Of a DNA stretch of 64,000 nt, positions 36,249 to 57,859 are shown in pieces. The position numbers and the translations under genes are program-made. Below the pieces are notes generated by a model. That model was not told the DNA's origin and did not search any database. It was given only the letters and a program-made list of their open reading frames with translations. Source of the stretch: an uncultured Thermoplasmata archaeon (GTDB lineage: Archaea > Thermoplasmatota > Thermoplasmata > UBA10834); NCBI GenBank assembly GCA_963787465.1, contig CAWBDD010000021.1, positions 80,598-144,597 of the forward strand, written 5' to 3'. Every line of letters begins with the position of its first letter. Positions within the stretch are counted from its first letter, which is position 1.

Positions 36249-36254
36249 GTACCG

Positions 36255-38122: not shown

Positions 38123-40204
38123 GTGACCTCGTCCGATTCGCAACACGAGAACAAGAGCAAGGATGGTCCCGCGAAGCCGAGGGTCGGGGTGTTCGTCTGC
38201 CATTGCGGCAGCAATATTGCTGGCGTCGTGGACTGCGGCAAGGTCAGGGAGGCCGCGGAGAAGATACCCGGCGTCGTCGTCGCCAAGGAGAACAAGTACA
38301 CCTGCTCCGACCTCGGCCAGGAGGAGATCGTCAAGGCGATCAAGGAGAACGGCGTCGAGCGCGTCGTCGTCGCATCCTGTTCACCGAGGCTCCACGAACC
38401 CACCTTCAGGGCATGCATCCAGAGGGCGGGCCTGAACCCATACCTCCTGCAGATGGTCAACATACGCGAGCAGTGCTCGTGGGTGCACGCGCACGAGAAG
38501 GAGAAGGCCACCGAGAAGGCGAGCGCCCTCGTGCGCATGGGCGCCTCGAAGGCGGCCATACTGGAGCCACTCGAGGCGCGCGAGGTCCCGGTCGAGCCGT
38601 CGACGCTCGTGATCGGCGGAGGGGTCTCTGGCATACAGGCCGCGCTGGACCTCGCGAACATGGGGTTCAAGGTCCATCTCGTCGAGTCGAAGCCGAGCAT
38701 AGGCGGCGTCATGGCCCAGCTCGACAAGACCTTCCCGACGGGCGACTGCGCCATCTGCATACTCGCACCGAAGATGGTGGAGCTGTCGCGTCATCCGAAC
38801 GTCACGCTCCTCTCCTACTCCGAGGTCGAGGAGGTCAAGGGCTACATCGGCAACTTCGATGTGAAGATCAGACGCAAGGCCAGATACGTGGACGAGGCGA
38901 AATGCGTCGGCTGCGGCGTATGCGCCGAGGCCTGCCCCGTCAAGGTCGAGAACGAGTTCGACGAGGGGTTCGGCCAGAGGAGAGCGATATACGTCCCGTT
39001 CCCGCAGGCCGTGCCGCTGAAGTACACCATCGACAAGGTCCACTGCCTACACTTCAAGACCGGCAAGTGCCAGCTCTGCGTGAAGGCGTGCATGAACAAC
39101 GCCATAGACCACAAGATGACCGACGAGGTGATTACCCTGAAGGTGGGGACGATCATCGTCGCGACCGGGTTCGAGACCTACGTCCCGAAGAAGAACGGGG
39201 TCTACAAGTACTGGGAGTACGAGAACGTCATAACCGCTCTCGAGCTCGAGAGGCTCCTCAACGCGTCCGGACCGACCGGAGGCCATCTCACCAGACCATC
39301 CGACGGGCTCGTCCCGAAGCGCGTGGCGTTCATCCAGTGCGTCGGATCCAGGAACAAGAAGATAGGGAACAACTACTGCTCGCGCGTCTGCTGCATGTAC
39401 GCGATGAAGAACGCGCAGATCATCAAGGAGCACTATCCAGATACCGACATCGCCGTCTATTACAACGACATCCGCGCCTTCGGGAAGGGCTTCGAGGAGC
39501 TCTACCACAGGGTCAGGGAGGACTACGGCGTCGAGTTCATCCGCGGGAGGCCGGCCAAGCTGACCCGGAACAAGGACACTAAGGGGGTCATGATCAGGGC
39601 CGAGGAGACCCTGCTCAACAAGATCACTGAGAGGGAGTTCGACCTCGTGGTCCTCTCGACCGGGCTGGTCCCATCCGAGGGGACGAAGAGGATCGCCAAG
39701 ACTCTCAGCCTCACCGTGAGCCCGGACGGCTTCCTCGCCGAAGCGCATCCGAAGCTGAGGCCCGTGGACACGGCCATGGACGGCATCTACCTCGCGGGTT
39801 GCTGCCAGTCGCCCAAGGACATACCCGACTCCGTAGCGCAGGCGAAGGCCGCCGCGTCGTCGGCCGCCCAGCCCATGGCGACCAAGAAGGTCCGCATCGA
39901 GCCGCTCACGGTCACGATAGACGAGGAGGTCTGCGTCGGCTGCGGGCTGTGCGTCGAGCTCTGCCCGTACGGCGCGCCCGAGCTCGCCCAGGGGGAGAAG
40001 GGCGGCATGAAGGCACATATCATAGAGGCGCTCTGCCACGGCTGCGGCACTTGTGCCGCATCGTGCCCGCAGAAGGCCATCACCGCGAAACAGTTCACAG
40101 ATGAGCAGATCTCGGCCGAGATAGCCTCCGCGCTGGCCTCCGATGACGAGGGGCACGCGCCCAAGGGGCATCACGGGAAGAGGGACGCCGAGGCGGGGGT
40201 GTGA
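38123..40204 (+). CDS. hdrA: Heterodisulfide reductase subunit A (canonical ~690-aa form)
   Basis: N-terminal VGVFVCHCGSNIAG Cys-cluster domain. FAD GG motif VIGGGVSGIQAALDLA. Inserted and C-terminal 4Fe-4S ferredoxin CxxCxxCxxxCP motifs. GTG start at 38123 preceded by the RBS GAGGAGGGGG. Confidence 0.9.
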   Translation: MTSSDSQHENKSKDGPAKPRVGVFVCHCGSNIAGVVDCGKVREAAEKIPGVVVAKENKYTCSDLGQEEIVKAIKENGVERVVVASCSPRLHEPTFRACIQRAGLNPYLLQMVNIREQCSWVHAHEKEKATEKASALVRMGASKAAILEPLEAREVPVEPSTLVIGGGVSGIQAALDLANMGFKVHLVESKPSIGGVMAQLDKTFPTGDCAICILAPKMVELSRHPNVTLLSYSEVEEVKGYIGNFDVKIRRKARYVDEAKCVGCGVCAEACPVKVENEFDEGFGQRRAIYVPFPQAVPLKYTIDKVHCLHFKTGKCQLCVKACMNNAIDHKMTDEVITLKVGTIIVATGFETYVPKKNGVYKYWEYENVITALELERLLNASGPTGGHLTRPSDGLVPKRVAFIQCVGSRNKKIGNNYCSRVCCMYAMKNAQIIKEHYPDTDIAVYYNDIRAFGKGFEELYHRVREDYGVEFIRGRPAKLTRNKDTKGVMIRAEETLLNKITEREFDLVVLSTGLVPSEGTKRIAKTLSLTVSPDGFLAEAHPKLRPVDTAMDGIYLAGCCQSPKDIPDSVAQAKAAASSAAQPMATKKVRIEPLTVTIDEEVCVGCGLCVELCPYGAPELAQGEKGGMKAHIIEALCHGCGTCAASCPQKAITAKQFTDEQISAEIASALASDDEGHAPKGHHGKRDAEAGV

Positions 40205-40785
40205 GCATGGGCGAGGCGGAGAAGACCTTCATAGGCGGGCTCCACGAGAAGCTCACGGAGGACAAGGTCATAGACGAGTCGCAGCTCGACCGAGACTTCG
40301 CGAAGGAGATCACGAAGTACGGCGGGAAGGACGTCATGACATGCCTCCAGTGCGGCAACTGCACCGGTGTGTGTCCCATCTCGCTCAAGATCGATTACAA
40401 GACCAGGATCATAATGAAGTACTGCCAGTTCGGGCTCAAGAAGTACACCCTGGGGACGCAATGGGTCTGCGCCACCTGCTACAGATGCTACGAGCACTGC
40501 CCCGCTGACATCAACCCCGCAGAGGTCATGATCGCCCTGAGGCACATCGCGGTCCGCGAGGGGGCCATCCCGCCGTTCGTCAAGGTCGCGGCGACCAACC
40601 TCGTCATGTACGGCCAGAGCGTCAAGCCCGACGCCGAGATCGAGAAGATACGCAAGGAGCTGGGCCTTGAGGACGTCCACTCCAAGGACCAGGAGTACAG
40701 GGTCGTCCTGAGGGAGATCAGGACGATCGTGCAGGCGACCAAGTACGACAAGCTCATAGGGATCGACGCGGAGGTGAAGCAGTGA
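40201..40785 (+). CDS. hdrC: Heterodisulfide reductase subunit C
   Basis: Two 4Fe-4S motifs: CLQCGNCTGVCP and CATCYRCYEHCP. Its start overlaps the hdrA stop. Confidence 0.85.
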   Translation: MSMGEAEKTFIGGLHEKLTEDKVIDESQLDRDFAKEITKYGGKDVMTCLQCGNCTGVCPISLKIDYKTRIIMKYCQFGLKKYTLGTQWVCATCYRCYEHCPADINPAEVMIALRHIAVREGAIPPFVKVAATNLVMYGQSVKPDAEIEKIRKELGLEDVHSKDQEYRVVLREIRTIVQATKYDKLIGIDAEVKQ

Positions 40786-41699
40786 GCGCATACGCCTACT
40801 TCTTCGGATGCGTCATCCCCAACAGATATCCAGGCATCGAGTTCGCCGTCAGATGGGTCTGCGGCAAGAACGGGTTCGACCTCGACGTCAAGGACATCAA
40901 GGAGTTCTCCTGCTGCCCCGTCCCTGGCATATTCTACTCCACCGACAAGGACACGTGGCTCGCGCTGGCGACGCGCAACCTCACCCTGGCGCAGGACGAG
41001 AGGAGGGAGATCATGACGGTCTGCAACGGCTGCCTGACCTCGCTCCTCAAGGCCACCGAGTACCTCCAGGACCCGAAGACCATGGGCAAGGTCAACAGGA
41101 CCCTGTCCCAGGTGGGGAGGAAGTACACGGGGATACCGAGGAAGGGCGAGGGGACCCGGCGGGTCTTCGAGCCGGTCAAGGTGCGCCACTACGTCGATGT
41201 CATGAGCAAGGACGTCGGGATGGACGCGGTTGCGGCCAAGGTCACCCATCCCCTGAAGAACATCAGGGTCGCGGTGCACTACGGCTGCCACTACCTGAGG
41301 CCGACCGAGCACCAGACCTTCGACGACCCTAACGACCCGAAGCTGATCGACAGGATGGTCGAGGCATGCGGGGCCACGAGCGTCGAATACGAGGACAGGC
41401 TCGACTGCTGCGGCGCGGGCGGCGGCGTCAGGTCGCACGTGGTCGAGCTGGCCAACTCGCTCACGCAGGACAAGTGCGCGAACATCAGCGCGGCCGGCGC
41501 GGACTGCATAGTCACCGGTTGCCCGTTCTGCCTCCTGCAGTTCGACAACGCGCAGAAGGCGTTCTCGAAGGACGGCATACCCGTCATGCACATCTCGCAG
41601 TTCCAGGCGCTCGCGATGGGGATAGACACCATCTCGCTGGGCTTCGACACGCACCATGTCTCCGTACACTCGTTCCTCAGGAAGCTCAGGGGGGCATAG
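40782..41699 (+). CDS. hdrB: Heterodisulfide reductase subunit B
   Basis: Two CCG domains (..SCCPVPG.., ..CCGAGGG..). Overlaps the hdrC stop. Confidence 0.9.
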   Translation: MSAYAYFFGCVIPNRYPGIEFAVRWVCGKNGFDLDVKDIKEFSCCPVPGIFYSTDKDTWLALATRNLTLAQDERREIMTVCNGCLTSLLKATEYLQDPKTMGKVNRTLSQVGRKYTGIPRKGEGTRRVFEPVKVRHYVDVMSKDVGMDAVAAKVTHPLKNIRVAVHYGCHYLRPTEHQTFDDPNDPKLIDRMVEACGATSVEYEDRLDCCGAGGGVRSHVVELANSLTQDKCANISAAGADCIVTGCPFCLLQFDNAQKAFSKDGIPVMHISQFQALAMGIDTISLGFDTHHVSVHSFLRKLRGA

Positions 41700-42159
41700 T
41701 CTGACCGAGGGGACGAAGGGCATCGACCAGGGGGAGGAGCAGGCTCCTTCCTACGAGCCGAGGATAGTGGCCTTCTGCTGCAACTGGTGCTCCTACGCGG
41801 GGGCGGACCTAGCGGGGACGACGAGGCTGCAGTACCCCACCAACGTCAAGATCATCAGGGTCATGTGCTCGGGCAGGGTCGACCCGGCGTTCGTGCTGAA
41901 GGCGTTCGCCCTCGGGGCCGACGGCGTGATAGTCGCTGGCTGCCACCCGGCGGACTGCCACTACATCAACGGGAACGAGAAGGCCGCCCTTAGGGGCGAC
42001 TTCCTCCAGCAGTTCCTCGAGGACACGGGCATCGAACCCCAGAGGTTCCGGGTCGAGTGGATCGCCGGGTCCGAGGGCTCCAAGTTCGCGTCGGTCATCA
42101 GGCAGATGGTCGCCGACCTCGAGAGGCTCGGCCCCATGGCGCAGGAGGGAGGGCAGTGA
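41656..42159 (+). CDS. mvhD: Methyl-viologen-reducing hydrogenase delta subunit MvhD. The start is ambiguous: ATG 41656 overlaps hdrB by 44 nt; the alternative is GTG 41767.
   Basis: [15 protein letters not shown]...IRVMCSGRVDP...[15 protein letters not shown] is diagnostic of MvhD. Confidence 0.75.
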   Translation: MSPYTRSSGSSGGHSLTEGTKGIDQGEEQAPSYEPRIVAFCCNWCSYAGADLAGTTRLQYPTNVKIIRVMCSGRVDPAFVLKAFALGADGVIVAGCHPADCHYINGNEKAALRGDFLQQFLEDTGIEPQRFRVEWIAGSEGSKFASVIRQMVADLERLGPMAQEGGQ

Positions 42160-45100
42160 CTGGGAGGACCGTCGGCGCGGTGCTCGTGGTCGGGGGCGGC
42201 CCGGCGGGCATGCAGGCAGCGCTGGACCTCGCCGACTCCGGGTTCAAGGTCTACCTGCTCGAATCGGGGGCCAGCATAGGCGGCACCATGGCCCAGCTCG
42301 ACAAGACATTCCCGACCAACGACTGCTCCATGTGCATCATATCCCCGAAGCTCGTCGCCACCGGGAAGCACGAGAACATCACCATGATCACCCACGGCGA
42401 GATCAAGAAGGTCGACGGGAAGGCCGGGGACTTCAAGGTCAAGATCACGAGGCACTCGAGGTACATCGAGGAGGCGAAGTGCACTGGATGCGGCGTGTGC
42501 GCCGAGCACTGCCCGGTCGAGGGGACCAACGCCTTCGACAGGGACATGGCGCCGAACAGGGCGATCTACGTGCCGTTCCCGCAGGCCATGCCACTCGTGT
42601 ACACCATAGACAGGGGACTCTGCATCGGCTGCGGTGTCTGCGAGAAGTTCTGCGAGGCGAAGGCCATCAAGTACGACGAGGCCCCTGACAAGGAGGAGAC
42701 CATCGAGGTCGGGGCCATCATCCTGGCGCCTGGCTACGAAATCTTCGAGGCGAAGAAGAAGGTCCAGTACGGCCACGGGACCTTCCCGAACGTCCTGACG
42801 AACATCGAGTTCGAGAGGATGCTCAGCGCCTCGGGGCCCACCGAGGGGCACATCATCAGGCCCTCCGACGGCGACGTGCCGAGGAGGATCGCGTTCGTAC
42901 AGTGCGTCGGCTCGAGGGATGCGCAGACCCCGAACACCTACTGCTCATCGTACTGCTGCATGGCGGCTCTCAAGCAGGCCGTGATAGGGCAGGAGCACGT
43001 GCCCGGGCTCAAGACCACGATATTCTTCATGGACACCAGGGCGTTCGGCAAGGAGTTCGAGGAGTACCTCTCGCGCGCGGAGAACGAGTACGGCGTGCGC
43101 GTGTGCAGGAACAACAGGATACCCAAGGTCGAGGAGGACGCGGAGACCAAGGAGCTCATCCTCAGCTACATCGGCGGCGCCGACATATCCGAGGAGAGGT
43201 TCGACATGGTCATCCTGTCGTGCGGCGCACGGCCGCCGGACAGCGCCGGGCACCTCGCCAAGACCCTGGGCATAAAGCTCAACAAGTTCGGGTTCGCGGA
43301 GACGGACGACCTCACACCGGTCGAGACATCGGTGCCGGGCATCTTCGTCTGCGGCGCCTTCGCCGGTCCCAAGGACATCCCCGACTCGGTCGCACAGGCG
43401 AGCGGGGCGGCGGGGAAGGCCGACGCCCTCCTGGCGGACGAGCGCGGGAAGCTCGTCTCGAAGAAGGAGTACCCCAAGGAGAAGGACGTCGCAGGGAAGG
43501 AGCCCAGGATCGGGGTCTTCGTCTGCCACTGCGGCATCAACATAGGCTCCGTCGTCGACGTGCCCGCTGTCGTGGAGTACGCGAAGACGCTCCCGGGGGT
43601 CGTGTTCGCCGACAGGAACCTGTACACGTGCTCGGGCGACACGCAGACGCGGATCAGGGAGATCATCCAGAAGCACGACCTCAACAGGGTCGTGGTCGCG
43701 AGCTGCACGCCCAGGACACACGAGCCGCTCTTCCAGAACACGGTCAAGGAGGCGGGGCTGAACAAGTACCTCTTCGAGATGGCGAACATCAGGGACCAGT
43801 GCTCATGGGTCCACAGGCTGGAACCGGGGCGCGCCACCGACAAGGCGAAGGACCTCGTGCGGATGGCGGTCGCGAAGGCCTCGACGCTCGAGCCGCTCCC
43901 GCAACCCAAGATACCCGTCACCCCCTCCGCGATGGTCATCGGTGGAGGGCTGGCAGGGATGACCGCGGCGCTGACGATCGCGAACGCTGGCTACGAGGTC
44001 CACCTCGTCGAGAGGGAGAAGGAGCTCGGGGGCCACCTGAGACGGATACACCGCACCCTGGCGGGCGTGGACCCCCAGGACACCTTCAAGGACCTGAAGA
44101 GGCAGATCTCCGAGAACAAGAACATCAAGCTGCACCTCGGGGAGACACCGAAGGAGGTCAAGGGCTACATCGGCAACTTCGAGACCACCCTGAGCGGAGG
44201 GGAGAAGTTCAAGCACGGCGCGGTCGTCGTGGCGACCGGCGCGTCGGAGTACGAGCCCAAGGAGTACCTCTTCGGGAAGAACCCCAAGGTGATGAGGCAG
44301 ACCGACCTCCAGGAGCTCCTGGCCAGCAAGCAGTTCAAGGCCAAGACAGTCGTCATGATCCAATGCGTCGGCTCGAGGAACGAGGAGCACCCCAACTGCT
44401 CCCGCATCTGCTGCTCGACGTCCATGGCCAACGCGCTCTGGATAAAGAGGGAACACCCGGACACCAGCGTGTACGTGCTGTACAGGGACATCAGGACCTT
44501 CGGGTTCGCCGAGGAGAACTACAACGAGGCGGCCAGGCTCGGTGTCATCTTCCTGAGGTACGACCCCGAGGACCCGCCCAGGGTCACCGAGGAGGGCGGG
44601 CAGCTCGTCGTCGAGATCGACGAGACTTTCATCGAGCAGGGGGTCCGCATCAGGCCCGACTACCTCGTCCTCAACGCGGCTGTGCACCCGAACCCCGACA
44701 ACAAGGAACTCGCCCAGCTGCTCAAGGTCCCTCTGAACAAGGAGGGCTTCTTCCTAGAGGCGCACATGAAGCTGCGCCCGGTGGATTTCGCCACCGACGG
44801 GATATTCCTGTGCGGCCTGGCCCACTCGCCCAGGCTCATAGACGAGAGCGTCTCGCAGGCGCTCGCCGCGGCAGCCAGGGTGAACACGGTTCTCTCCAAG
44901 GAGTTCATAGAGGCGGATGGCATGGTCAGCGTCGTCGACCAGGAGAAGTGCGTGGCTTGCGGCAGGTGCGAGGAGGTCTGCCAGTACGGCGCACCCAGGC
45001 TCGAGGAGGTCTCGCCTGGTGTCGTCAAGTCGCGCATAAACGAGGCGCTGTGCAAGGGCTGTGGCTCCTGCGCGGTCACGTGCTGCACACGCGCCATCAG

Positions 45101-45194
45101 CCCGAAGCACTTCAAGAGCGAGCAGATACTCACCATGATCGAGGCGTGCCTGCGCAAGGACCTCGATAAGGTGGACGGGGAGGTCAAGGCATGA
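42156..45194 (+). CDS. hdrA: Tandem HdrA-like protein (1,012 aa): an N-terminal HdrA-like FAD/ferredoxin module fused in front of a complete HdrA
   Basis: Two FAD GG motifs: VVGGGPAGMQAALDLA at the N-terminus and VIGGGLAGMTAALTIA at ~aa 600. An internal RIGVFVCHCGINIG Cys-cluster domain. Ferredoxin motifs in both halves. A GTGA start/stop overlap with mvhD. Confidence 0.8.
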   Translation: MTGRTVGAVLVVGGGPAGMQAALDLADSGFKVYLLESGASIGGTMAQLDKTFPTNDCSMCIISPKLVATGKHENITMITHGEIKKVDGKAGDFKVKITRHSRYIEEAKCTGCGVCAEHCPVEGTNAFDRDMAPNRAIYVPFPQAMPLVYTIDRGLCIGCGVCEKFCEAKAIKYDEAPDKEETIEVGAIILAPGYEIFEAKKKVQYGHGTFPNVLTNIEFERMLSASGPTEGHIIRPSDGDVPRRIAFVQCVGSRDAQTPNTYCSSYCCMAALKQAVIGQEHVPGLKTTIFFMDTRAFGKEFEEYLSRAENEYGVRVCRNNRIPKVEEDAETKELILSYIGGADISEERFDMVILSCGARPPDSAGHLAKTLGIKLNKFGFAETDDLTPVETSVPGIFVCGAFAGPKDIPDSVAQASGAAGKADALLADERGKLVSKKEYPKEKDVAGKEPRIGVFVCHCGINIGSVVDVPAVVEYAKTLPGVVFADRNLYTCSGDTQTRIREIIQKHDLNRVVVASCTPRTHEPLFQNTVKEAGLNKYLFEMANIRDQCSWVHRLEPGRATDKAKDLVRMAVAKASTLEPLPQPKIPVTPSAMVIGGGLAGMTAALTIANAGYEVHLVEREKELGGHLRRIHRTLAGVDPQDTFKDLKRQISENKNIKLHLGETPKEVKGYIGNFETTLSGGEKFKHGAVVVATGASEYEPKEYLFGKNPKVMRQTDLQELLASKQFKAKTVVMIQCVGSRNEEHPNCSRICCSTSMANALWIKREHPDTSVYVLYRDIRTFGFAEENYNEAARLGVIFLRYDPEDPPRVTEEGGQLVVEIDETFIEQGVRIRPDYLVLNAAVHPNPDNKELAQLLKVPLNKEGFFLEAHMKLRPVDFATDGIFLCGLAHSPRLIDESVSQALAAAARVNTVLSKEFIEADGMVSVVDQEKCVACGRCEEVCQYGAPRLEEVSPGVVKSRINEALCKGCGSCAVTCCTRAISPKHFKSEQILTMIEACLRKDLDKVDGEVKA

Positions 45195-46786
45195 CCGAGG
45201 AGAGGTTCGAGCCGAGCATAGTGGCCTTCTGCTGCAACTGGTGCTCCTACGCCGGGGCCGACCTGGCGGGCGTGAGCAGGATGCAGTACCCACCGAACGC
45301 GAGGGTCATCAGGGTCATGTGCTCCGGCAGGGTCGAGCCGTACTTCATACTCAGGGCGCTGGAGCTCGGGGCCGACGGTGTCCTGATCGCAGGGTGCCAC
45401 ATAGGCGACTGCCACTACATCTCCGGGAACGTCGAGGCCGAGAAGCGCATGGCCGCGACCAAGGAGGTCCTCGACAGGCTCGGCATAGGCAAGGACCGGA
45501 TGCGCCTGGAGTGGATCTCCGCGTCCGAGGGCCAGAAGTTCGCCCAGACGATGAAGGAGTTCACGGAGCAGATCAGGAAGCTCGGGCCCAACCCGCTGGC
45601 GGGGAAGCTCCCGGAGAAGAAGCCGTCCGCTGACCTCAAGAAGAAGGTCGACCAGCTCATAGAGGACACCGGGGCGTTCGACTGCGTGGAGTGCGGGAAG
45701 TGCACCACGGTCTGCCCTGTGGCCAAGTACGACCCCGACTTCGCCCCCAGGACCATCGTCCTGAAGTCCATGGAGGGGCAGGTGAGCGAACTGTCCAAGG
45801 GCAAGGACATCTGGACGTGCGTCACCTGCGAGCAGTGCAACTCGATGTGCCCGTACAAGGTGGACTACTCGGGCTTCATACGCGGGCTCAGGACCGAGGC
45901 GGCCGCCTGCGACAACGTGCCCGTGTGCTCCCAGGGCGGGCTCATGCAGGGGGTCATGAGGGTCCAGGCGAACGGGTCCTTCAAGCAGGACAGGCTCACG
46001 TGGCTGACCCCTGACCTGAAAGTGGCGGACAAGGGGGACTACTTCCTGTTCACGGGTTGCGCGACATACTTCGACGCCATATTCAGGGACCGCCAGGAGC
46101 TCAAGCTCGCCGACATACCCCGCGCGGCGGTCAAGATCATGAACAGGGCGGGCATCGTCCCGGTCGTCAGCAACGACGAGGTCTGCTGCGGGCACGACCT
46201 CAACTGGACCGGGGACGAGGACGGCATGATGAAGCTCATGAAGAAGAACGTGGACCTGATCAAGGCGTCGGGGGCGAAGAAGGTGGTCTTCCCGTGCCCG
46301 GAGTGCCTCAGGACCTTCAACATGGACTACCAGGACTTCCTGGGCGACTTCGACTTCGAGCTGGTGCACATATCCCAGCTCGTGGACGACCTCCTGAAGG
46401 AGGGGAAGATCAAGCTCAAGAAGGGCGTCTCCAAGGTCACGTTCCAGGACTCCTGCAGGCTCGGGAGGCACATGGGCATCTACGACGAGCCCAGGGCTGC
46501 CATCAGGGGGACCCAGGCCGAGGTGGTCGAGATGGACAACACCAGGGACAAGGCCCTGTGCTGCGGCGTCAGCGCGTGGGCGACCTGCGACGAGGTCTCG
46601 AAGAAGATGCAGGTCGACAGGCTCAAGGAGGCGAAGCGGACCGGCGCCGAGTGCCTGGTGACCGGGTGCTACAAATGCCTGATACACCTTAACTGTGCGC
46701 AGGTCAACAAGACCCAGGTTCCCAAGGAACAGATAGACATACCGATCAAGGATCTGAGCGTGTTCATCGCGGACGCGCTGGAATGA
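45191..46786 (+). CDS. MvhD-HdrC-HdrB triple-domain fusion protein
   Basis: N-terminal MvhD domain ([15 protein letters not shown]...CHIGDCHY). Two ferredoxin motifs (CVECGKCTTVCP, CVTCEQCNSMCP). C-terminal CCG domains (CCGHDL, LCCGVSAW). ATGA overlap with the upstream gene. Confidence 0.8.
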   Translation: MTEERFEPSIVAFCCNWCSYAGADLAGVSRMQYPPNARVIRVMCSGRVEPYFILRALELGADGVLIAGCHIGDCHYISGNVEAEKRMAATKEVLDRLGIGKDRMRLEWISASEGQKFAQTMKEFTEQIRKLGPNPLAGKLPEKKPSADLKKKVDQLIEDTGAFDCVECGKCTTVCPVAKYDPDFAPRTIVLKSMEGQVSELSKGKDIWTCVTCEQCNSMCPYKVDYSGFIRGLRTEAAACDNVPVCSQGGLMQGVMRVQANGSFKQDRLTWLTPDLKVADKGDYFLFTGCATYFDAIFRDRQELKLADIPRAAVKIMNRAGIVPVVSNDEVCCGHDLNWTGDEDGMMKLMKKNVDLIKASGAKKVVFPCPECLRTFNMDYQDFLGDFDFELVHISQLVDDLLKEGKIKLKKGVSKVTFQDSCRLGRHMGIYDEPRAAIRGTQAEVVEMDNTRDKALCCGVSAWATCDEVSKKMQVDRLKEAKRTGAECLVTGCYKCLIHLNCAQVNKTQVPKEQIDIPIKDLSVFIADALE

Positions 46787-47196
46787 CAACTCGAGAAAGT
46801 GATAGGATGACACCGAACAAGGCCCAACAGCAGCCGCCGAAGGCTGACGAGAGGTTCGTGCTGATAGAGCTGTCCTGCAAGGACAAGAAGTGCTCGCCTT
46901 GCACGTACCCGAACTGCCAGAGGTTCGCGACCGAGCAACCCAAGAAGAAGCCGTACGAGACGCGCTTCTCGAGGATGTTCGAGGTCAAGAAGCCCATGAC
47001 CACGCCCGAGGCACCCAGGGAACGCCTGGTGCTCGTGGAGCTGTCCTGCAAGGACAAGAAGTGCTCGCCTTGCACATACCCGAACTGCCAGAGGTTCGCC
47101 AAGGCGACCACCCAGGAGAGGAAGAAGGCGCCTTTCAAGGTGAAGATCACGGAGATCGAGAAGGGCACGGACGTCTCGAAGCTCCTCGGCAAGTAG
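46783..47196 (+). CDS. Small tandem-repeat Cys-cluster protein (2 x C-x4-C-x2-C-x4-C), last gene of the hdr module
   Basis: 137 aa. The 27-aa block ER(F/L)VL(I/V)ELSCKDKKCSPCTYPNCQRFA occurs twice. The underlying 66-nt DNA repeat (46870-46935 versus 47040-47105) differs by one base. The start overlaps the upstream stop (ATGA). Confidence 0.55.
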   Translation: MTTRESDRMTPNKAQQQPPKADERFVLIELSCKDKKCSPCTYPNCQRFATEQPKKKPYETRFSRMFEVKKPMTTPEAPRERLVLVELSCKDKKCSPCTYPNCQRFAKATTQERKKAPFKVKITEIEKGTDVSKLLGK

Positions 47197-47206
47197 CAGG
47201 CTGGAG

Positions 47207-47219
47207 TGCTTAACGAATG
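47207..47219 (+). promoter_or_regulatory. Second copy of the TGCTTAACGAATG motif, 181 nt upstream of the start of the second hdrA-like operon
   Basis: See the entry at 37928-37940. A CATATG-ACGCA-CATATG inverted repeat also lies at 47346-47362. Confidence 0.4.
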
Positions 47220-48698: not shown

Positions 48699-48702
48699 TC
48701 CG

Positions 48703-50572: not shown

Positions 50573-51372
50573 GTGACCAGGTCAAGAAGGAGCAGAGCGG
50601 GGAGTTCGAGCCCAAGGTCATCGGGTTCCTCTGCAACTGGTGCTCCTACGCAGGGGCGGACCTCTGCGGGGTCAGCAGGTACCAGTACCCGACCAACATC
50701 CGCGCGGTGAGGGTCATGTGCTCGACCAGGATCAGCCCGCACCTCGTCCTCGACCTTTTCAGGGCTGGGGCGGACGGCATCCTGCTCGGTGGCTGCCACA
50801 TAGGCGACTGCCACTACATATCCGGGAACTACTACACCGAGAAGCGCGTCAGGCTCATGAAGAAGCTGCTCGAGGAGAGCGGCCTGGAGCCGGAGCGCCT
50901 CAGGCTGGAGTGGGTCTCGGCCTCCGAGGGCGAGAAGTTCTCGAAGGTCGTGAGCGAGTTCACGGAGCACGTGAGGAAGCTCGGCCCCAGCAAGGTCAAG
51001 AGCGACCCGGTCCAGAGGGACAAGGTCGCGGCCGCGGACGCCGCAGGCGAGACCTTCAGGCTGAGGGCGCTGGTCGGCAAGGAGCTCAACCTTGTCCAGA
51101 AGGGGAACGTGTACGACAACAAGCTGGACCCGGTCGAGCTGCAGAAGATCATCGACCACGCGACCGAGGAGGAGTTCGAGCGCGCGCTCATACTGGAGCT
51201 GAGCCGCTCGAAGCCCAGGTCGGTCAAGGAGCTCGGACAGATCATGGACGTGCCGACGGACAAGGTCCTGAGGCACATAGTGGCGCTCCGTCAGAAGAAC
51301 ATGATAACGATGGAGCACCCGGACGGGTTCACACCCACATACAAGACCATAGAGATCGGAGGTGAGCACTGA
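50569..51372 (+). CDS. MvhD domain protein fused to a C-terminal winged-helix-like domain
   Basis: N-terminal [14 protein letters not shown]...CHIGDCHY (MvhD). The C-terminal ~90 aa (ALILELSRSKPRSVKELGQIMDVPTDKVLRHIVALRQKNMI) is homologous to the free-standing protein at 54867-55257. GTGA overlap with the upstream stop. Confidence 0.75.
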   Translation: MSDQVKKEQSGEFEPKVIGFLCNWCSYAGADLCGVSRYQYPTNIRAVRVMCSTRISPHLVLDLFRAGADGILLGGCHIGDCHYISGNYYTEKRVRLMKKLLEESGLEPERLRLEWVSASEGEKFSKVVSEFTEHVRKLGPSKVKSDPVQRDKVAAADAAGETFRLRALVGKELNLVQKGNVYDNKLDPVELQKIIDHATEEEFERALILELSRSKPRSVKELGQIMDVPTDKVLRHIVALRQKNMITMEHPDGFTPTYKTIEIGGEH

Positions 51373-54300
51373 TGGCTACCACGGACAAGATCGGGGCAGT
51401 AATGGTCGTCGGTGGCGGCATCTCGGGGATGCAGTCGGCCCTGGACCTAGCGGACCAGGGGTTCAAGGTCTACCTGATCGAGAAGCAGCCGAGCATCGGC
51501 GGCGTCATGGCCCAGCTCGACAAGACCTTCCCGACCAACGATTGCTCCATGTGCATCATGGCCCCGAAGCTGGTCGCCACCGGCAGGCACCACAACATAC
51601 AGCTGATCACGAACGCCGAGATAGCGATAGTGGATGGCCAGGCAGGCAACTTCACCGTCACGGTGAAGCAGCGCGCCTTCAGGGTCGACACGACCAAGTG
51701 CACGGGCTGCGGCAGCTGCGCGCAGAAGTGCCCGATCGAGACCGCCGACGAGTACAACGAGGGCACGAAGGTGCGCAAGGCGATATTCGTGCGCTACCCG
51801 CAGGCGGTCCCGCTGGTGTACAGCATCGACCCTGAGAAGTGCATCGGTTGCGGCATCTGCGCCGAGGAGTGCAAGGCCAAGGCCGTCGCGTACGACCAGA
51901 AGGAGAGGGTCATCGAGATCAACGTCGGATCGATCATCGTCTCGCCCGGCTTCGAGGAGTTCAACGCGAGGCTGAAGAGCGAGTACGGGTACGGCGTCTA
52001 CCAGAACGTCGTGACGAGCATCGAGTTCGAGAGGATGCTCAGCGCGACCGGGCCGTACTTCGGGTCCGTGCTCAGGCCCTCGGACGGCGACATACCGGAG
52101 AAGATAGCCTTCATCCAGTGCGTCGGCTCCAGGGACGAGCATGTCGGCAACGAGTACTGCTCCAGCGTGTGCTGCATGTACTCCATCAAGGAGGCCGTCA
52201 TCGCGAAGGAGCACGGCGGGAACATCAAGCCCACCATCTTCTTCATGGACATGAGGGCCTTCGGCAAGGAGTTCGACGAGTACTACAACCGCGCCCAGAA
52301 GGAGTACGGGATCAGGTTCGTCAGGTCCAGGATCGCATCCGTGGTCGAGGACCCGAAGACCAAGAACCTGATGCTCAAGTACACCGGAGAGGGCGAGCCC
52401 AAGGAGGAGGCGTTCGACCTCGTCGTGCTGGCGGTCGGGCTGAGGCCCGCTGCGGACGCCGAGGCGCTGAGCCGGATCATGAAGTTCAGGCTCAACGACG
52501 ACGGCTTCTGCCAGACGGGGACCTTCGCCCCGGTCGAGACATCGCGTCCGGGCGTCTACGTCAGCGGCGCGTTCTCCGCGCCCAAGGACATACCGATGAC
52601 CGTCGCAGAGGCGAGCGGCGCGGCCGCGAAGGCCGCCTCCGACATCGCCGGCGCCAGGGGCACGCTCGTCACGAAGAAGGAGTACCCCAAGGAACTCGAC
52701 GTCACGGGCCAGGAGCCCAGGATCGGGGTCTTCGTCTGCCACTGCGGCATCAACATAGGCGGGGTCGTGAAGGTCCCGGAGGTCGCGGAGTACGCGAAGA
52801 CGCTGCCGAACGTGGTCTACGCCGAGCAGAACCTGTACACCTGCTCCCAGGACGCGCAGGAGCGCATCAAGGAGAAGGTCAAGGAGCACAAGCTCAACAG
52901 GGTCGTGGTCGCGAGCTGCACGCCCAGGACGCACGAGCCCCTGTTCCAGAACACCATCAGGGAGGCGGGACTGAACCCGTACCTCTTCGAGATGGCGAAC
53001 ATCAGGGACCAGTGCTCGTGGATACACATGCACGAGCCGAAGGCCGCCACGAAGAAGTCCAAGGACCTCGTGCGCATGGCCGTCGCGAAGTCGAGGCTCC
53101 TGGAGCCGCTCGAGAACCTCGAGATCAACGTCAACCAGGCCGCCATGGTCATTGGCGGCGGGCTGAGCGGGATGACCGCGGCCCTGGAGCTCGCGAAGCA
53201 GGGCTTCCAGGTCCACCTGGTCGAGAAGGAGAAGCAGCTCGGGGGCAACCTCGGAAAGCTGCACTACCTGCCGACGGGCGACGACCCGAAGGCGCACCTC
53301 GACGCGATGGTGAAGGAGGTCATGTCCAACCCGCGGATCAAGACGCACCTCGGGACGACCGTGAAGACCATCGAGGGGTACGTCGGGAACTTCAAGACCG
53401 ACCTCGTGAACGGCCAGAAGGTCGAGCACGGCGCCGTCATCGTGGCCATCGGCGGCCAGGAGTACAAGCCGGAGGGCGAGTACCTCTACGGGAAGAACAA
53501 GGGCGTCATGACCCTCCTCGAGTACAAGGACAAGTTGTCGAAGGGCGAGGTCAAGGGCGGGACGACCGTGTTCATCCAGTGCGTCGGGTCCAGGGAGGAC
53601 AAGCACCCGAACTGCTCCCGCGTCTGCTGCACCGGCACGATGACCGCGGCGATCAAGACCAAGGAGAAGGACCCAGCGTCCACGATATACGTGCTCTACC
53701 GCGACATCAGGACCTACGGCTTCAGGGAGAAGTTCTACAAGGAGGCCAGCCGGAAGGGCGTGACCTTCATCAGGTTCGAGGACGGCACCAAGCCGAAGGT
53801 GGAGGAGAAGGGCGGGAAGCTCGAGGTGACCGTGAAGGACGAGGACACCGGCAAGGATGTCATCCTCAGGCCGGACCACCTGGTCCTCGCTTCGGGGACG
53901 AGGCCGTCCCACGATATCGAGACGCTCGCGCCGATGCTGAAGGTGCCCGTCACGCAAGGAGGGATTCTTCCTCGAGGCGCACATGAAGCTCCGGCCGGTC
54001 GAGTTCGCCACCGAGGGCGTGTACCTGGCGGGCCTCGCGCACGGACCCAAGTTCGTGGACGAGAGCATCGGGCAGGCGCTCGCGGCGGTGTCGCGCGCCA
54101 TGACCGTCCTGTCGAAGACCACCCTCGAGGCGGAGGGCATAGTCGCGAGCATAGAGGAGACCCTCTGTGACGGCTGCGGCATATGCGTCCCGACCTGCGA
54201 GTACAAGGCCCTCGATGTCCTCCCGGACAAGAAGGACCCGAAGAAGAAGATCGTCGAGGTCAACGTCGGCCTGTGCAAGGGCTGCGGCGCCTGCGTGGGC

Positions 54301-54410
54301 GCCTGCCCGTCCGGCGCCCTGGACACAGAAGGGCTTCAAGGACGAGCAGATCTACGCGATGATCGATGCCGCGCTCGAGGACGACGCGCAAGAGACAGGA
54401 GGTGAAGTAA
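51372..54410 (+). CDS. hdrA: HdrA paralog (third module). It is complete in its first ~860 aa, but the C-terminal part requires at least two +1 corrections (~53958 and ~54328). It is possibly continuous with the downstream MvhD.
   Basis: VVGGGISGMQSALDLA, RIGVFVCHCGINIGG and a second GG motif MVIGGGLSGMTAAL (a tandem-type HdrA). After ...MLKVPVTQ the track frame becomes P/R/G junk, while EGFFLEAHMKLRPV... continues in +1. After ...ACPSGALDT it shifts again, to KGFKDEQIYAMIDAALEDD.... Confidence 0.6.
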
Positions 54411-54866
54411 TGAGCACTGAGGCGCACGGGCACAAGCAATGGACATGCGACTGGGGACGGGTTCGAGCCGAAGATACTCGTCTTCTGCTGCAACTGGTGC
54501 TCCTACGCCGGGGCCGACCTGGCAGGGGTCAGCAGGCTGCAGATGCCGCCGCACTTCAGGGTGATCAGGGTCATGTGCTCCGCGAGGGTCGACCCCGAGT
54601 TCGTCCTGCGGGCGTTCCAGAAGGGCGCGGACGGCGTGCTCGTCGCTGGGCTGCCACCCGGCGGACTGCCACTACATCGGAGGGAACTACAGGACCCGCA
54701 GGAGGATCGCCCTGCTGAGGATGCTGCTGCAGCAGTTCGGGTTCGACCCGGGCAGGCTGAAGCTGGAGTGGGTCTCGGCCGGGGAGGGCGAGAAGTTCCA
54801 GAAGACCATCACCGAGTTCACGAACACTATCATGGAGCTCGGACCGTCTCCGATGAGAGGTGGTGA
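54410..54866 (+). CDS. mvhD: MvhD (third module), interrupted by two apparent +1 frameshifts at G-runs (~54453 and ~54648)
   Basis: [15 protein letters not shown] | [65 protein letters not shown] | [31 protein letters not shown]...MRGGE*, reconstructed by removing one G at each site. Confidence 0.55.
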
Positions 54867-55257
54867 ATGAGGATGCCGGCGAACGAGGCCAGGATCAGGG
54901 CGGCGCTCAGGACCGTGGAAGGGGAGCGCGTCAGGTGGCTCCTGGGCAAGAAGGGGCCACTGACCACGATCGGGCAACGTGTTCGGCGAGACCATCACCG
55001 ACGCGAGGTACAGCTTCATACTGCAGAAGGCGGCAGGGGTCGAGCTGGACCGGAACCTCCTTCTCATCGAGATGGAGCGGGGACCGAGGACCGTGCACGA
55101 GCTGCACGACGCCACGAGGCTCCCGAAACCCGAGATCGTGAAGCACATCATCGCCCTGAAGAAGTGGAGGCTGGTCGAGCAGGTGGGCATGAAGGACCGG
55201 TCGCCGCAGTACATGGCCGTAGCGCGCAAGGCATCGGATGAGAGAGAGGTGAGCTGA
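54867..55257 (+). CDS. Free-standing winged-helix-like protein homologous to the C-terminal domain of the MvhD fusion at 50569-51372. It contains an apparent +1 frameshift at ~54972-54976.
   Basis: MRMPANEARIRAALRTVEGERVRWLLGKKGPLTTIG | NVFGETITDARYSFILQKAAGVELDRNLLLIEMERGPRTVHELHDATRLPKPEIVKHIIALKKWRLVEQVG... It starts directly after the mvhD stop. Confidence 0.45.
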
Positions 55258-55259
55258 AC

Positions 55260-56276
55260 ATGGCTGACAAGATCAAGATCGCACAGTACTGGGGAGCAGG
55301 ATGCGGCGGGTGCGACGTCGCGCTCCTGGACATCGACGCCAAGATACTGGACATCCACGCGATAGCGGAGGTCGTCTTCTGGCCGATCGGCTTCGACGGG
55401 AAGCTCCACGAGATCGAGGCGATGCCCGACAAGAGCATCACCGTATCGTTCTACAACGGCGCGATAAGGAACTCCGAGAACGAGCACGTCGCGAAGGTGC
55501 TGAGGCAGAAGTCCGTCATAATGATCGGGTTCGGCTCGTGCGCCTGCTTCGGCGGCACGCCCGGCCTGGCCAACGTGACGAACAGGAAGGAGGTCTTCCA
55601 GACCGTCTACAAGGACACGCAGTCGACGGACAACCCGAACTTCGTGACGCCCCAGACCCACACCAAGACCAAGGACGGCGAGCTGGAGCTGCCGGAGTTC
55701 TACGACACGGTCAAGATGCTCGACGAGGTCGTCGACGTCGACTACTTCATGCCCGGCTGCCCGCCGACGGTCAACCTGATCGCGCTGGCGGTCGACGCCG
55801 TCGTGAAGCACGTCAAGGAGGGCGCGCCGCTGCCCCCGAAGGGCACGATCATAGCCTCCGACAAGACCCTGTGCGACGAATGCAAGAGGGAGAGGGTCGA
55901 GAAGAACAGGAGGATCGAGAGGATCTACCAGGCCTACGAGATCACGCCCGACCCGAAGAAGTGCCTCCTGGACCAGGGGATCATATGCATAGGGCCAGCG
56001 ACGCGCGCCGGATGCGGCGCGATGTGCCCGAACGCGCAGATGCCCTGCAGGGGCTGCATGGGCCCGACGAGGGCCGTCACGGACCAGGGCGCGAGCATGC
56101 TCTCCGCGGTCTCGTCGCTGCTGAACATCACGGATTCGGAGTCAAAGCTAAGTGAGGAGCAGATAATGGAGCTCATGATGCAGGTCAAGGACCCGCTCGG
56201 GACCTTCTACGCTTTCACGCTGCCGAAGTCCCCGATCAAGCGCGTCGTGACCGAGAGAGGCAAGAGGAAGGTGTGA
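55260..56276 (+). CDS. mvhG: [NiFe] hydrogenase small subunit MvhG (F420-non-reducing hydrogenase)
   Basis: N-terminal WGAGCGGC cluster motif, plus medial and distal Fe-S cluster Cys patterns (GSCACFGG, CxxC...CRGC). Confidence 0.85.
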   Translation: MADKIKIAQYWGAGCGGCDVALLDIDAKILDIHAIAEVVFWPIGFDGKLHEIEAMPDKSITVSFYNGAIRNSENEHVAKVLRQKSVIMIGFGSCACFGGTPGLANVTNRKEVFQTVYKDTQSTDNPNFVTPQTHTKTKDGELELPEFYDTVKMLDEVVDVDYFMPGCPPTVNLIALAVDAVVKHVKEGAPLPPKGTIIASDKTLCDECKRERVEKNRRIERIYQAYEITPDPKKCLLDQGIICIGPATRAGCGAMCPNAQMPCRGCMGPTRAVTDQGASMLSAVSSLLNITDSESKLSEEQIMELMMQVKDPLGTFYAFTLPKSPIKRVVTERGKRKV

Positions 56277-57796
56277 TCACCGTGGCTGGACCTATCATCA
56301 ACGACACCACTGTCAAGACAAAGGAGAGGAAGATCACCATCGACCCGATCACGAGGCTCGAGGGCCACGGCAAGATCGAGATATTCCTGGACGAGGCCGG
56401 CGATGTCGCCGACGCGTACCTCCAGGTGCCCGAGCTCAGGGGCTTCGAGAGGTTCTGCATAGGCAGGCACGTGCAGGAGCTGCCGGTCCTGACCAACAGG
56501 CTCTGCGGCGTCTGCCCGGCGGCGCACCACCTGGCGTCGACGAAGGCCCTGGACGCGGTCTTCAACGCCGAGCCACCGCCCACGGCGAAGAAGCTGAGGG
56601 AGCTCTTCTACATGGGCCAGTACACGCACAGCCACATCGCGCACTTCTACGCCCTCGCGGCGCCGGACTTCGTGCTCGGGCCGTCCGCCCCGGCCAACAA
56701 GAGGAACGTCCTCGGCGTGGTAGACGCCGTCGGCGTGCCGATCGGGGCCGAGGTCATAAAGCACAGGTCTTACGGTCAGAAGGTGCAGGAGATCGTGGGC
56801 GGCAGGGCGACACACCCCGTGTTCGGCCTCCCCGGAGGCGTGAGCAAGCAGATCAGCGAGGAGGAGCGCGCCCAGATGGAGGAGATGGCCAAGAGCTGCG
56901 TCGAATTCGGAAAGTTCACGGTCAAGCTCTTCCACGACGTCGTCCTCGCGAACAAGGACTACCTGGGACTCATACTCAACCAGGACGCGTACTACCTGGA
57001 GACCTACTACATGGGCATGGTCGACAAGAACAACAAGAGCAACTTCTACGACGGCGATATCCGCGTGGTCGACCAGACAGGTAAGGAGTTCGTGAGATTC
57101 AAGCCGAGCCAGTACCTCGACGTCATCTCAGAGCACGTCGAGCCCTGGACATACATGAAGATGCCCTTCCTGAAGAAGGTCGGCTGGAAGGGGTTCGTCA
57201 CCGGACCGTCGAGCGGCATATACAGGGTCGGGCCCCTGGCCAGGATCAACGTCTGCACCGGGTACACGACACCGCTGGCGCAGGCCGAGTACGAGGCCTT
57301 CAGGAAGACCATGAAGGACCTGGGAGTGACAGGGCCGGTGCACCACACCCTGGCGTTCCACTGGGCGAGGGTCATCGAACTGCAGCACGCGGCGGAGCGC
57401 ATGCTCGAGCTCGCGAGCGACAAGACCATCACGAGCGCCGACATCAGGGGCAAGTTCAACCCGCCCACGGAGGGCGTCGGCATCGTCGAGGCCCCGAGGG
57501 GCACGCTCATCCACCACTACGCCTCGGACAAGGACGGCATCTGCACCAAGATCAACATGGTCGTCGCCACGACCAACAACTACGCGGCCATCAACACCAG
57601 CGTGAAGCAGGCGGCGAAGGCGCTGATCAAGGGCGGCATGGTGTCCCAGGGCCTCCTGAACAAGGTCGAGATGGCCTTCAGGTGCTACGACCCGTGCAAC
57701 TCCTGTGGCACGCACGCGCTGAACGGCGGGCCCGCGCTCGAGGTCACCGTCAAGAGGAAGGACGGCACCGTCGTCGAGAGGCAGAGAAACTTCTGA
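56273..57796 (+). CDS. mvhA: [NiFe] hydrogenase large subunit MvhA
   Basis: N-terminal RLCGVCP and C-terminal DPCNSCGTH Ni-Fe ligand motifs. GTG start overlapping the mvhG stop. Confidence 0.9.
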   Translation: MITVAGPIINDTTVKTKERKITIDPITRLEGHGKIEIFLDEAGDVADAYLQVPELRGFERFCIGRHVQELPVLTNRLCGVCPAAHHLASTKALDAVFNAEPPPTAKKLRELFYMGQYTHSHIAHFYALAAPDFVLGPSAPANKRNVLGVVDAVGVPIGAEVIKHRSYGQKVQEIVGGRATHPVFGLPGGVSKQISEEERAQMEEMAKSCVEFGKFTVKLFHDVVLANKDYLGLILNQDAYYLETYYMGMVDKNNKSNFYDGDIRVVDQTGKEFVRFKPSQYLDVISEHVEPWTYMKMPFLKKVGWKGFVTGPSSGIYRVGPLARINVCTGYTTPLAQAEYEAFRKTMKDLGVTGPVHHTLAFHWARVIELQHAAERMLELASDKTITSADIRGKFNPPTEGVGIVEAPRGTLIHHYASDKDGICTKINMVVATTNNYAAINTSVKQAAKALIKGGMVSQGLLNKVEMAFRCYDPCNSCGTHALNGGPALEVTVKRKDGTVVERQRNF

Positions 57797-57859
57797 ATGG
57801 AGCTTACGTGAGGGAGACCCCCTCACGGAATCACACTTTTCCCAGCCCAGGCAAGACCC

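Follow-up and report, generated by a model that had tools for sequence, protein, structure and literature searches.

A conserved hydrogenase-linked electron-bifurcation supercluster in an uncultured Thermoplasmata archaeon

An uncultured Thermoplasmata archaeon related to the Methanomassiliicoccales encodes, on contig CAWBDD010000021.1, a hydrogenase-linked electron-bifurcation supercluster of ~20 kb that is genuine, ancient and widely shared. The window analyzed here is a stretch of 64,000 nucleotides (nt) of this contig (positions 80,598 to 144,597, forward strand); it has ~63% GC with a strong signal at third codon positions (GC3) across its 64 kb, and its 33.8–58.3 kb segment is filled by a run of plus-strand genes. 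Searches against Pfam, NCBIfam and PDB sequences confirm HdrA, HdrC, HdrB, four MvhD domains, MvhG/MvhA and a HycI protease in the cluster; the HdrA set consists of one canonical protein, two fused proteins of 1,011–1,012 amino acids (aa) and one split pair. The whole is best explained, with a probability that we put at roughly 0.72, as a genuine, vertically conserved supercluster of two blocks that supports hydrogenase-linked flavin-based electron bifurcation, in which winged helix-turn-helix (wHTH) domains would serve in docking and the breaks in four reading frames are insertion errors of the assembly.

HdrA-based electron bifurcation is central to energy conservation in anaerobes. To our knowledge, solved structures have so far been limited to the canonical methanogen complexes and, since very recently, benzoyl-CoA reductase. 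The parts of the present cluster fall into known families. A classification of fused and split HdrA has been published, and many public metagenome-assembled genomes (MAGs) have the arrangement in full; not yet described are the conserved double-HdrA unit around a monophyletic extended MvhD, and a free wHTH paralog. Earlier genome papers on Thermoplasmata basal to the Methanomassiliicoccales mention merely “multiple hdrABC/mvhADG homologs”, with the disulfide unknown. The locus described here contains a conserved unit in which two different HdrA pseudo-dimers go with an extended MvhD of their own, a putative adaptor; the unit occurs widely among uncultured archaea, Asgard and Bathyarchaeia among them, and also in several bacterial phyla. 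This offers structural and biochemical studies of coupled bifurcation modules a specific target outside the model lineages.

Gene Content and Layout

A preliminary description of this DNA was essentially right in its domain identities, gene list and coordinates. It divided the cluster into three heterodisulfide reductase modules, A, B and C, whose letters are kept in the gene names used here. The gene families stand; the modules do so only in part. Modules B and C lack HdrB and HdrC and are therefore HdrA/MvhD modules, not heterodisulfide reductase modules, and the three-way split is partly artificial: B, C and mvhGA form one old, conserved unit.

All genes of the cluster lie on the plus strand. 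Block 1 (38123–47196) opens with A1, a canonical five-domain (type I) HdrA (38123–40204) that aligns end to end with the solved HdrA 5odc_A (E = 1e-268). It is followed by A2, an HdrC with 4Fe-4S dicluster domains (40201–40785; TIGR03290, E = 1e-35); A3, an HdrB with two CCG domains (40782–41699; PF02754 in two stretches, E = 8e-31); A4, a free MvhD (41656–42159; PF02662 FlpD, E = 5e-54); A5, a fused (type II) HdrA of 1,012 aa (42156–45194; Pfam, paralog mapping and motif tables); A6, a 531-aa MvhD-HdrC-HdrB (HdrD-like) fusion (45191–46786; FlpD, E = 2e-57, Fer4_8 and two CCG stretches); and A7, a Cys-rich protein of 137 aa (46783–47196).

Block 2 (47400–58348) starts with a split HdrA: B1, a thioredoxin-reductase core of 432 aa (47400–48698; Pfam, NCBIfam and motif tables), and B2, 622 aa after correction of its frame (48703–50572; paralog mapping, relatives and motif tables). 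Next come B3, a 267-aa MvhD with an extension of ~125 aa (50569–51372; FlpD, E = 2e-53 on residues 17–139); C1, a second fused (type II) HdrA, 1,011 aa after correction (51372–54410); C2, an MvhD of 152 aa after correction (54410–54870; FlpD, E = 2.8e-56 on the corrected protein); and C3, a free wHTH protein of 129 aa after correction (54867–55257). The block closes with mvhG (55260–56276; Oxidored_q6; VhuG, E = 1e-65) and mvhA (56273–57796; NiFeSe_Hases, E = 9e-38; VhuA, E = 8e-127; metal-binding motifs RLCGVCPAAH and DPCNSCGTH), for the small and large hydrogenase subunits, and a hycI-type hydrogenase maturation protease gene (57860–58348; PF01750, E = 2e-11) that is syntenic in relatives.

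The genes are tightly packed: of the 15 junctions between A1 and mvhA, ten are overlaps of 1 or 4 nt (five of GTGA, three of ATGA and one each of TGATG and TAATG), and two more are gaps of 2 and 4 nt. The preliminary description had read start/stop overlaps at nearly every junction as translational coupling across >15 kb. The overlaps are indeed frequent, but a single run of that length does not exist, since a 203-nt gap (47197–47399) separates A7 from B1 and leaves two coupled blocks of 9.1 and 10.4 kb. Each block is preceded by a block of letters resembling a B recognition element and TATA box (BRE/TATA). The first, CGAAACCTATATTAAC (37977–37992, plus strand), lies in the hypD–A1 spacer upstream of A1 and is kept in the orthologous hypD–hdrA spacer of L008 (L-numbers denote loci or contigs of relatives in this analysis); the second, CGAAACAGATAAAG (47267–47280, plus strand), lies in the A7–B1 gap and is kept upstream of B1 in L004 and L013. 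They are the likely promoters of block 1 and block 2, respectively.

Conservation of the Two Blocks

A scan of species-representative genomes with B3 yielded 80 loci, onto which all window proteins were mapped. The closest loci belong to Thermoplasmata MAGs, followed by Methanomassiliicoccales. The full order A3/A4, A5, A6, (A7), B1, B2, B3, C1, C2, C3, mvhG, mvhA, hycI is intact in L004, L006, L007 and L013, and the hypF-hypD-A1..A5 portion recurs in L008. Beyond these, the core of block 2, i.e., an HdrA pair (split or fused), MvhD-wHTH, a fused HdrA and MvhD, is usually followed by MvhGA; in Bathyarchaeia the core is followed by HdrC-HdrB-MvhG-MvhA-HycI, and the core alone is found in Asgard archaea, one Clostridia MAG, Planctomycetota and Desulfobacterota.

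The arrangement also varies. A6 is split into MvhD and HdrCB in L014 and L029, and C3 is missing in L003 and L005. In L006 (5374–8076), L007 and L015, the B1 ortholog is a single open reading frame (ORF) of ~900 aa with a GltD/NfnB-like NAD(P)H-flavoprotein insertion of ~480 aa inside the inserted ferredoxin domain. HdrA with such an insertion is the published type III (PMC12054007, PMC9012536), and these orthologs are a hint of a possible link between the B unit and NAD(P)H in sister lineages. In L013 (6178–13806), a further unit of MvhD-wHTH and fused HdrA lies between B2 and the B3 at its usual place; the MvhD-wHTH/fused-HdrA pair therefore behaves as a repeatable module.

Complementary Halves of the HdrA Units

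A1 has the VCHCGSNI motif of the N-domain, the Cys194/197 motif, the inserted and C-terminal ferredoxin domains, and E356/K409 (motif scan, alignment to 5odc_A). It scores below both NCBIfam equivalog cut-offs, with 946 vs. 1100 bits for the HdrA2 model and 685 vs. 1400 bits for the HdrA model, and is, on this basis, best described as an HdrA homolog rather than a curated equivalog.

A5 and C1 each contain two GxGxxG and two CVGSR motifs, and Pyr_redox_2 matches them in several stretches, indicating two thioredoxin-reductase domains with flavin adenine dinucleotide (FAD) sites per chain. The N-terminal cluster domain (VCHCGxNI) and the C-terminal ferredoxin domain are found in A1, in the C-halves of A5 and C1, and in B2; the DKTFPTxDCxxC motif, which holds Cys194/Cys197, and the inserted ferredoxin domain are found in A1, in the N-halves of A5 and C1, and in B1. 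The motif scan of A5 and C1 places VCHCGINI in the C-half only and DKTFPTNDCSMC in the N-half only. B1, called truncated in the preliminary description, is an HdrA core without the N-terminal domain and without the C-terminal ferredoxin domain, which carries Cys197 and the inserted ferredoxin domain and belongs to the A6-like class of the HdrA literature; B2 has the N-domain and the C-terminal ferredoxin domain and lacks the Cys197 motif. Judged from sequence, each fused HdrA, as well as the B1/B2 pair, forms a pseudo-heterodimer of complementary halves. Complementary HdrA domains have been interpreted by Chadwick et al. as an obligate heterodimer or self-heterodimer (PMC9012536), and the type II class as a fusion of A6-like and A12-like HdrA (PMC12054007).

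The signature of the bifurcating flavin follows the same division. E356/K409, whose roles in flavin-based electron bifurcation are taken from PMC12054007, are kept in A1, B1, B2 and the N-halves of A5 and C1 (alignment to 5odc_A), and are lost only in the C-halves, where they are replaced by Q/A in A5 and K/T in C1. Each fused protein should therefore hold one bifurcating and one predicted non-bifurcating FAD, whereas both flavin sites keep E356/K409 in 75% of type II HdrA sequences (PMC12054007).

In the numbering of the 1,045-aa ORF translation of A5, B1 aligns to residues 41–445 and B2 to residues 481–1036. The proposal that B1 and B2 are the unfused counterpart of A5 thus holds for the architecture. 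They are not the unfused form of A5 itself: in neighbor-joining (NJ) trees, calculated here without bootstrap support, the deepest HdrA split separates the B type from the A5/C1 type, which makes B1+B2 a separate deep lineage, and B-type HdrA is itself fused in some Asgard genomes. B2 also has a charged low-complexity insertion at residues ~350–400 (49750–49900), which includes EKKATDEILERRRRRRGRDAGTDEGGAEEV and is absent from the other HdrA units.

Partner Proteins of Block 1 and the Hydrogenase

A3 scores 320.6 bits with TIGR03288, just below the cut-off of 345, and its two CCG domains are the sites of non-cubane [4Fe-4S] clusters. Orthologs of A4 align only from residue ~27, and the true start of A4 may lie near 41701. 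The HdrCB part of A6 has TfrB (6e-34) and LdhH (1e-31) as best NCBIfam matches, with HdrB at just 1.5e-6; its C-terminal region is HdrD-like in the broad sense. Fusions of the A6 type are common, with >100 full-length homolog clusters of 55–97% identity, annotated merely as “hydrogenase iron-sulfur subunit” or “HdrD”. A7 consists of two ~57-aa repeats, each with a C-x6-C-x2-C-x5-C motif SCKDKKCSPCTYPNC; the underlying DNA repeats, 46858–46928 and 47029–47099, are ~94% identical. No Pfam family matches A7 above threshold, and its orthologs are restricted to L004 and L013, with none in L006 and L007.

MvhA and MvhG fall below the VhuA/VhuG equivalog cut-offs. Their N- and C-terminal CxxC Ni-Fe motifs and the adjacent MvhD and endopeptidase genes identify them as a putative group 3c-type [NiFe] hydrogenase.

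MvhD Domains and the Winged Helix-Turn-Helix Extension

The four MvhD contexts noted in the preliminary description are real: free (A4), fused to HdrCB (A6), fused to a wHTH (B3) and adjacent to a wHTH (C2). All four domains (those of A6 and B3 at the N-terminus) match PF02662 with 179–193 bits against a cut-off of 22.3 and contain the CNWC...GCHxxDCHY Cys motifs. In B3, Leu replaces the first Cys of the CC pair seen in the other three window MvhDs: all MvhD-wHTH proteins read FLCNWC, as opposed to FCCNWC in the other three and in reference MvhD. MvhD-wHTH proteins make up a single clade across phyla in the NJ tree.

The extension makes B3 longer than a usual MvhD: 267 aa, compared with 129–141 aa for all solved MvhDs in a search of PDB sequences. 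It has no Pfam family of its own; HTH_20 matches it at 4e-3 (17.5 bits vs. a cut-off of 27), and a member of the C3 family, P0011, at 1e-6. B3 residues 75–261 align to 54649–55221. C3 is therefore a paralog of the whole extension, not of the HTH alone. Among 1.84 billion proteins, relatives of the extension fall into 145 representative clusters and are either free (110–130 aa) or MvhD-fused (210–270 aa), with a few longer fusions. An AlphaFold2 model of B3 (mean predicted local distance difference test score, pLDDT, 66.5) shows the MvhD fold, two long helices and an HTH, with the wing poorly modeled; a Foldseek search of this model against the PDB returned MvhD chains only, and a single weak match, 5duk_B (E = 0.77), for the wHTH part.

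The sole published precedent that we found for an extended MvhD with a wHTH comes from the cryo-electron microscopy (cryo-EM) of a class II benzoyl-CoA reductase (bioRxiv 10.64898/2026.04.10.717634), and the MvhD-wHTH clade is the least-described part of the cluster. In that enzyme, BamE is a fused HdrA dimer in which one FAD bifurcates and the other does not, and BamF is an MvhD homolog >100 aa longer than others, whose wHTH docks the input module BamI. The window resembles this system in combining a fused HdrA with one predicted bifurcating flavin and an extended, wHTH-bearing MvhD, and B3 fits the description of BamF in having a wHTH in an extension of >100 aa and in being encoded beside a fused HdrA. 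It differs in that the window lacks genes for BamB/C (the tungsten enzyme) and BamGHI. BamF has a selenocysteine at one position (bioRxiv 10.64898/2026.04.10.717634). The Desulfobacterota MvhD-wHTH loci were considered as bam clusters and rejected: their neighbors are MetF, HGD-D and an Fdh/NuoG-like gene.

The wHTHs of B3 and of the free C3 are probably protein-docking adaptors, by analogy with BamF, and less likely DNA-binding regulators. A docking role is favored because of their mid-operon position, the nearly invariant HdrA neighborhood and the BamF precedent: among 47 MvhD-wHTH genes, an HdrA pair lies directly upstream in 44 and a fused HdrA directly downstream in 41. A more far-reaching proposal, which we regard as possible yet tentative, is that MvhD-wHTH is a BamF-like inter-module adaptor that would couple B1/B2, C1 and MvhAG into one two-stage bifurcation machine, ancient, shared by Thermoplasmata, Bathyarchaeia, Asgard archaea and several bacterial phyla, and re-plugged onto different donors (hydrogenase, MetF, Fdh-like).

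That the wHTHs are true DNA-binding domains, with B3 as a redox-sensing regulator (the MvhD [2Fe-2S] cluster being the sensor) and C3 as an ArsR-type repressor, both controlling the promoters of the cluster, appears doubtful. C3 does match the ArsR model HTH_5 (1.4e-4; 22.1 bits vs. a cut-off of 22), and many of its homologs carry PF01022. A 12-mer, GCTTAACGAATG, occurs exactly twice in the 64-kb window (37929–37940 and 47208–47219) vs. 0.04 times expected, each copy 48–59 nt upstream of the BRE/TATA-like block that precedes A1 or B1, and may be a shared regulatory site. When checked as a conserved operator, however, it was found outside the window only in the near-identical L001 and in no other genomes, and it is therefore a lead only. 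Moreover, the B3 and C3 genes overlap structural genes by 4 nt in mid-operon, HdrA genes flank MvhD-wHTH in 41–44 of the 47 cases across phyla, and in BamF, the sole MvhD with a wHTH for which there is structural work, that domain docks another protein.

Frame Breaks as Probable Assembly Errors

Four genes of block 2 are broken by +1 frameshifts that the preliminary description had missed. There are seven in all: B2 has one, and the other six lie at 53.9–55.0 kb. The interval 48703–50572 is not an open frame, its length is not a multiple of three, and tblastn with intact paralogs shows B2 moving from frame 1 to frame 2 near 49340, at an extra C (49344). The shifts in module C map to ~53957, 54322 and 54386–89 (C1), ~54431–40 and 54648–50 (C2) and ~54968–75 (C3), so that the reading frame of the module changes in the order 3, 1, 2, 3, 1, and then, in C3, from 3 to 1. 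As sequenced, its ORFs are 51372–54170, 54167–54718 and 54867–55241, the last two without a Pfam match.

These breaks are likely single-base insertion errors of the long-contig assembly, because all are +1, six are absent from near-identical contigs, their removal restores the lengths of orthologs, codon differences after correction are mostly synonymous, and a gene outside the cluster is likewise hit. Deleting one base at 49344 and six in 53957–54975 yields the corrected lengths given above, and the intact orthologs in L004 and L013 have 1,013–1,015 aa (C1), 154 aa (C2) and 121–130 aa (C3). Six of the seven breaks are absent from eight independent, near-identical contigs. One of these, the ENA contig L001 (97.9% identity over 9.9 kb), does not have the additional C of 49344. 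The other seven (L082–L088; short contigs from JGI, Logan and ENA) are 96.7–98.3% identical to the window and, wherever they overlap it, lack the extra bases at 54322, 54386, 54431, 54648 and 54968, leaving C2 and C3 intact; L082, L083 and L087 contain intact 152-aa C2 genes. Intact relatives of C3, P0001 and P0002, are 99% identical, and P0103, an annotated 92-aa protein, is probably a truncated C3. Between the window and the near-identical contigs, the corrected frame of C3 shows 4–7 synonymous and no nonsynonymous codon differences and that of C2 5–14 and 2–3, respectively, the same mostly synonymous pattern as in the intact mvhG. The DUF7065/DUF7064 gene at 2904–3925 (plus strand) is split into three ORFs by two +1 shifts (frames 3, 1 and 2), and insertion errors are therefore not confined to the hdr cluster.

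If the shifts were real, B2, C1, C2 and C3 would be young pseudogenes, and only block 1 and MvhGA would be functional. This is improbable. The breaks are present in the sequence as given, six of them within ~1 kb, and the 53957 site has no near-identical comparator; still, every break is a +1 insertion, with no deletions and no in-frame stops, every near-identical contig lacks the breaks where it covers them while codon differences remain mostly synonymous, and the same +1 defect affects an unrelated gene 50 kb away. L001 (contig_70672) has single-base indels of the same kind in other genes, whose counterparts in the window are unbroken. Selenocysteine and programmed frameshifting were rejected: there is no in-frame TGA at the breaks, seven +1 shifts occur in four genes, and near-identical relatives are in frame. 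In practical terms, the apparent truncations most likely stem from the assembly, and four genes of this contig are overlooked or wrongly called by automatic annotation. At 55257, the C3–mvhG spacer of the window has an additional A compared with five of the seven short-read relatives; as L083 and L088 have it too, this is a natural intergenic polymorphism rather than an error.

Age of the Paralogs

The preliminary description saw in the cluster a recently duplicated and recombined toolkit. The domain repertoire is indeed repeated three times in 20 kb, with fused and split forms side by side, but the paralogs are only 45–57% (HdrA) and 49–61% (MvhD) identical, and the MvhD domains are as far from one another as from the Methanothermococcus MvhD (5odc_D), to which they are 53–60% identical. 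In the NJ trees, A5, C1, B1+B2 and each MvhD cluster with orthologs of other genomes, not with each other. The ortholog groups of C1, B1+B2, C2 and B3 include Methanomassiliicoccales and Bathyarchaeia, and those of B1+B2 and B3 also Asgard archaea; A5 groups with other Thermoplasmata. C1 is 59–60% identical to the C1 type of Bathyarchaeia and 57% to A5, and the complete order is conserved in relatives with orthologs of no more than 66–88% identity. A recent origin of modules B and C from A within this lineage is thus very unlikely. A chimeric or mis-joined assembly of separate hdr loci has next to no probability: error-prone as the assembly demonstrably is at the single-base level, the comparison of gene order, named in the preliminary description as a check, finds the same order in L001 and in the independent short-read MAG contigs L004, L006, L007 and L013, and short contigs span the C1–C2–C3–mvhG junctions in that order.

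Comparison With Known Systems

The A1–A4 set and mvhGA together supply every subunit of the MvhAGD-HdrABC complex known from Methanothermococcus thermolithotrophicus (5ODC) and Methanothermobacter (8RVU, 9SW2), and A1 has all the cluster motifs of that complex as well as Cys197 and E356/K409. In contrast to that system, a distance of 13 kb, with three more HdrA units in it, separates hdrACB-mvhD from mvhGA downstream, the scores are below the NCBIfam equivalog cut-offs, and the window has no mcr.

A5 and C1 share with the type II fused or tandem HdrA of methane-metabolizing archaea (PMC12054007; PMC9012536) two thioredoxin-reductase domains in complementary halves, and a split counterpart exists here too, with an A6-like B1 and a complementary domain set in B2. 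In ANME HdrA3/4 (PMC9012536), however, the half with the N-domain comes first, whereas here it is the half with Cys197, and the C-halves of A5 and C1 depart from type II HdrA in lacking E356/K409. Unlike that of the methane-metabolizing archaea, this HdrA has a Thermoplasmata host with no mcr seen in the available sequence, and its partner is MvhAG rather than FdhB or a molybdopterin protein.

The MetFV-HdrABC-MvhD complex of Moorella, like related bacterial clusters, also combines a fused HdrA of complementary halves with MvhD (PMC9012536), and a Desulfobacterota unit of fused HdrA, MvhD-wHTH, fused HdrA and MvhD (L044) adjoins MetF. The window enzyme is a [NiFe] hydrogenase, as opposed to a methylene-tetrahydrofolate reductase.

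Proposed Function

From the components we infer the following wiring. MvhAG would oxidize H2, and from the [2Fe-2S] cluster of MvhD the electrons would enter an HdrA unit at its input half, the one with the clusters of the C-terminal ferredoxin domain and the N-domain. In the partner half they would be bifurcated at the flavin: one branch would lead via the inserted ferredoxin domain to ferredoxin, the other to an acceptor of high potential, namely a disulfide, either at HdrB (A3) or at the HdrCB portion of A6. Block 1 would combine the canonical HdrA-HdrC-HdrB-MvhD set with the fused HdrA A5 and its own MvhD-HdrCB fusion, A6. In block 2, the B3 extension and C3 would link up the two HdrA units, or an input module. 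In this lineage block 2 has no HdrBC of its own, C3 being located where Bathyarchaeia have HdrC-HdrB; block 2 therefore would borrow block 1 modules or end in a different acceptor.

Several points weigh against the explanation favored here. The composition of the complexes is deduced from synteny only, and there are genes for just one hydrogenase but for four HdrA units, so that other donors may serve block 1 and the B1/B2 pair. There is no mcr gene in the window, and the HdrA, HdrB, HdrC and Vhu scores are all below NCBIfam equivalog cut-offs. In Desulfobacterota, the HdrA/MvhD-wHTH unit lies not beside a hydrogenase but beside MetF (L044, 15057–15992) or a NuoG/Fdh-like molybdopterin gene (L040, 347–3007); the unit therefore looks like a portable bifurcation core attached to different donor enzymes. 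As to docking, the likeness of B3 to BamF rests on the published description of the latter, the model of B3 is just moderate, and C3 matches the ArsR model HTH_5 and is annotated as an ArsR regulator, so that it may bind DNA. As to the assembly and the age of the cluster, no near-identical contig covers the shift at 53957, six errors are bunched within ~1 kb, and the NJ trees have no bootstrap support.

Elsewhere in the Window

Upstream of block 1, at 33779–37707 (plus strand), lie the maturation genes hypF and hypD with small ORFs between them (Pfam), which L008 has at the same position. An ABC transporter of the FecCD/periplasmic-binding type is encoded at 20.0–23.4 kb. A gene on the minus strand (2205–2850) encodes a corrinoid-binding protein with B12-binding and B12-binding_2 domains, of the kind used by methyltransferase systems.

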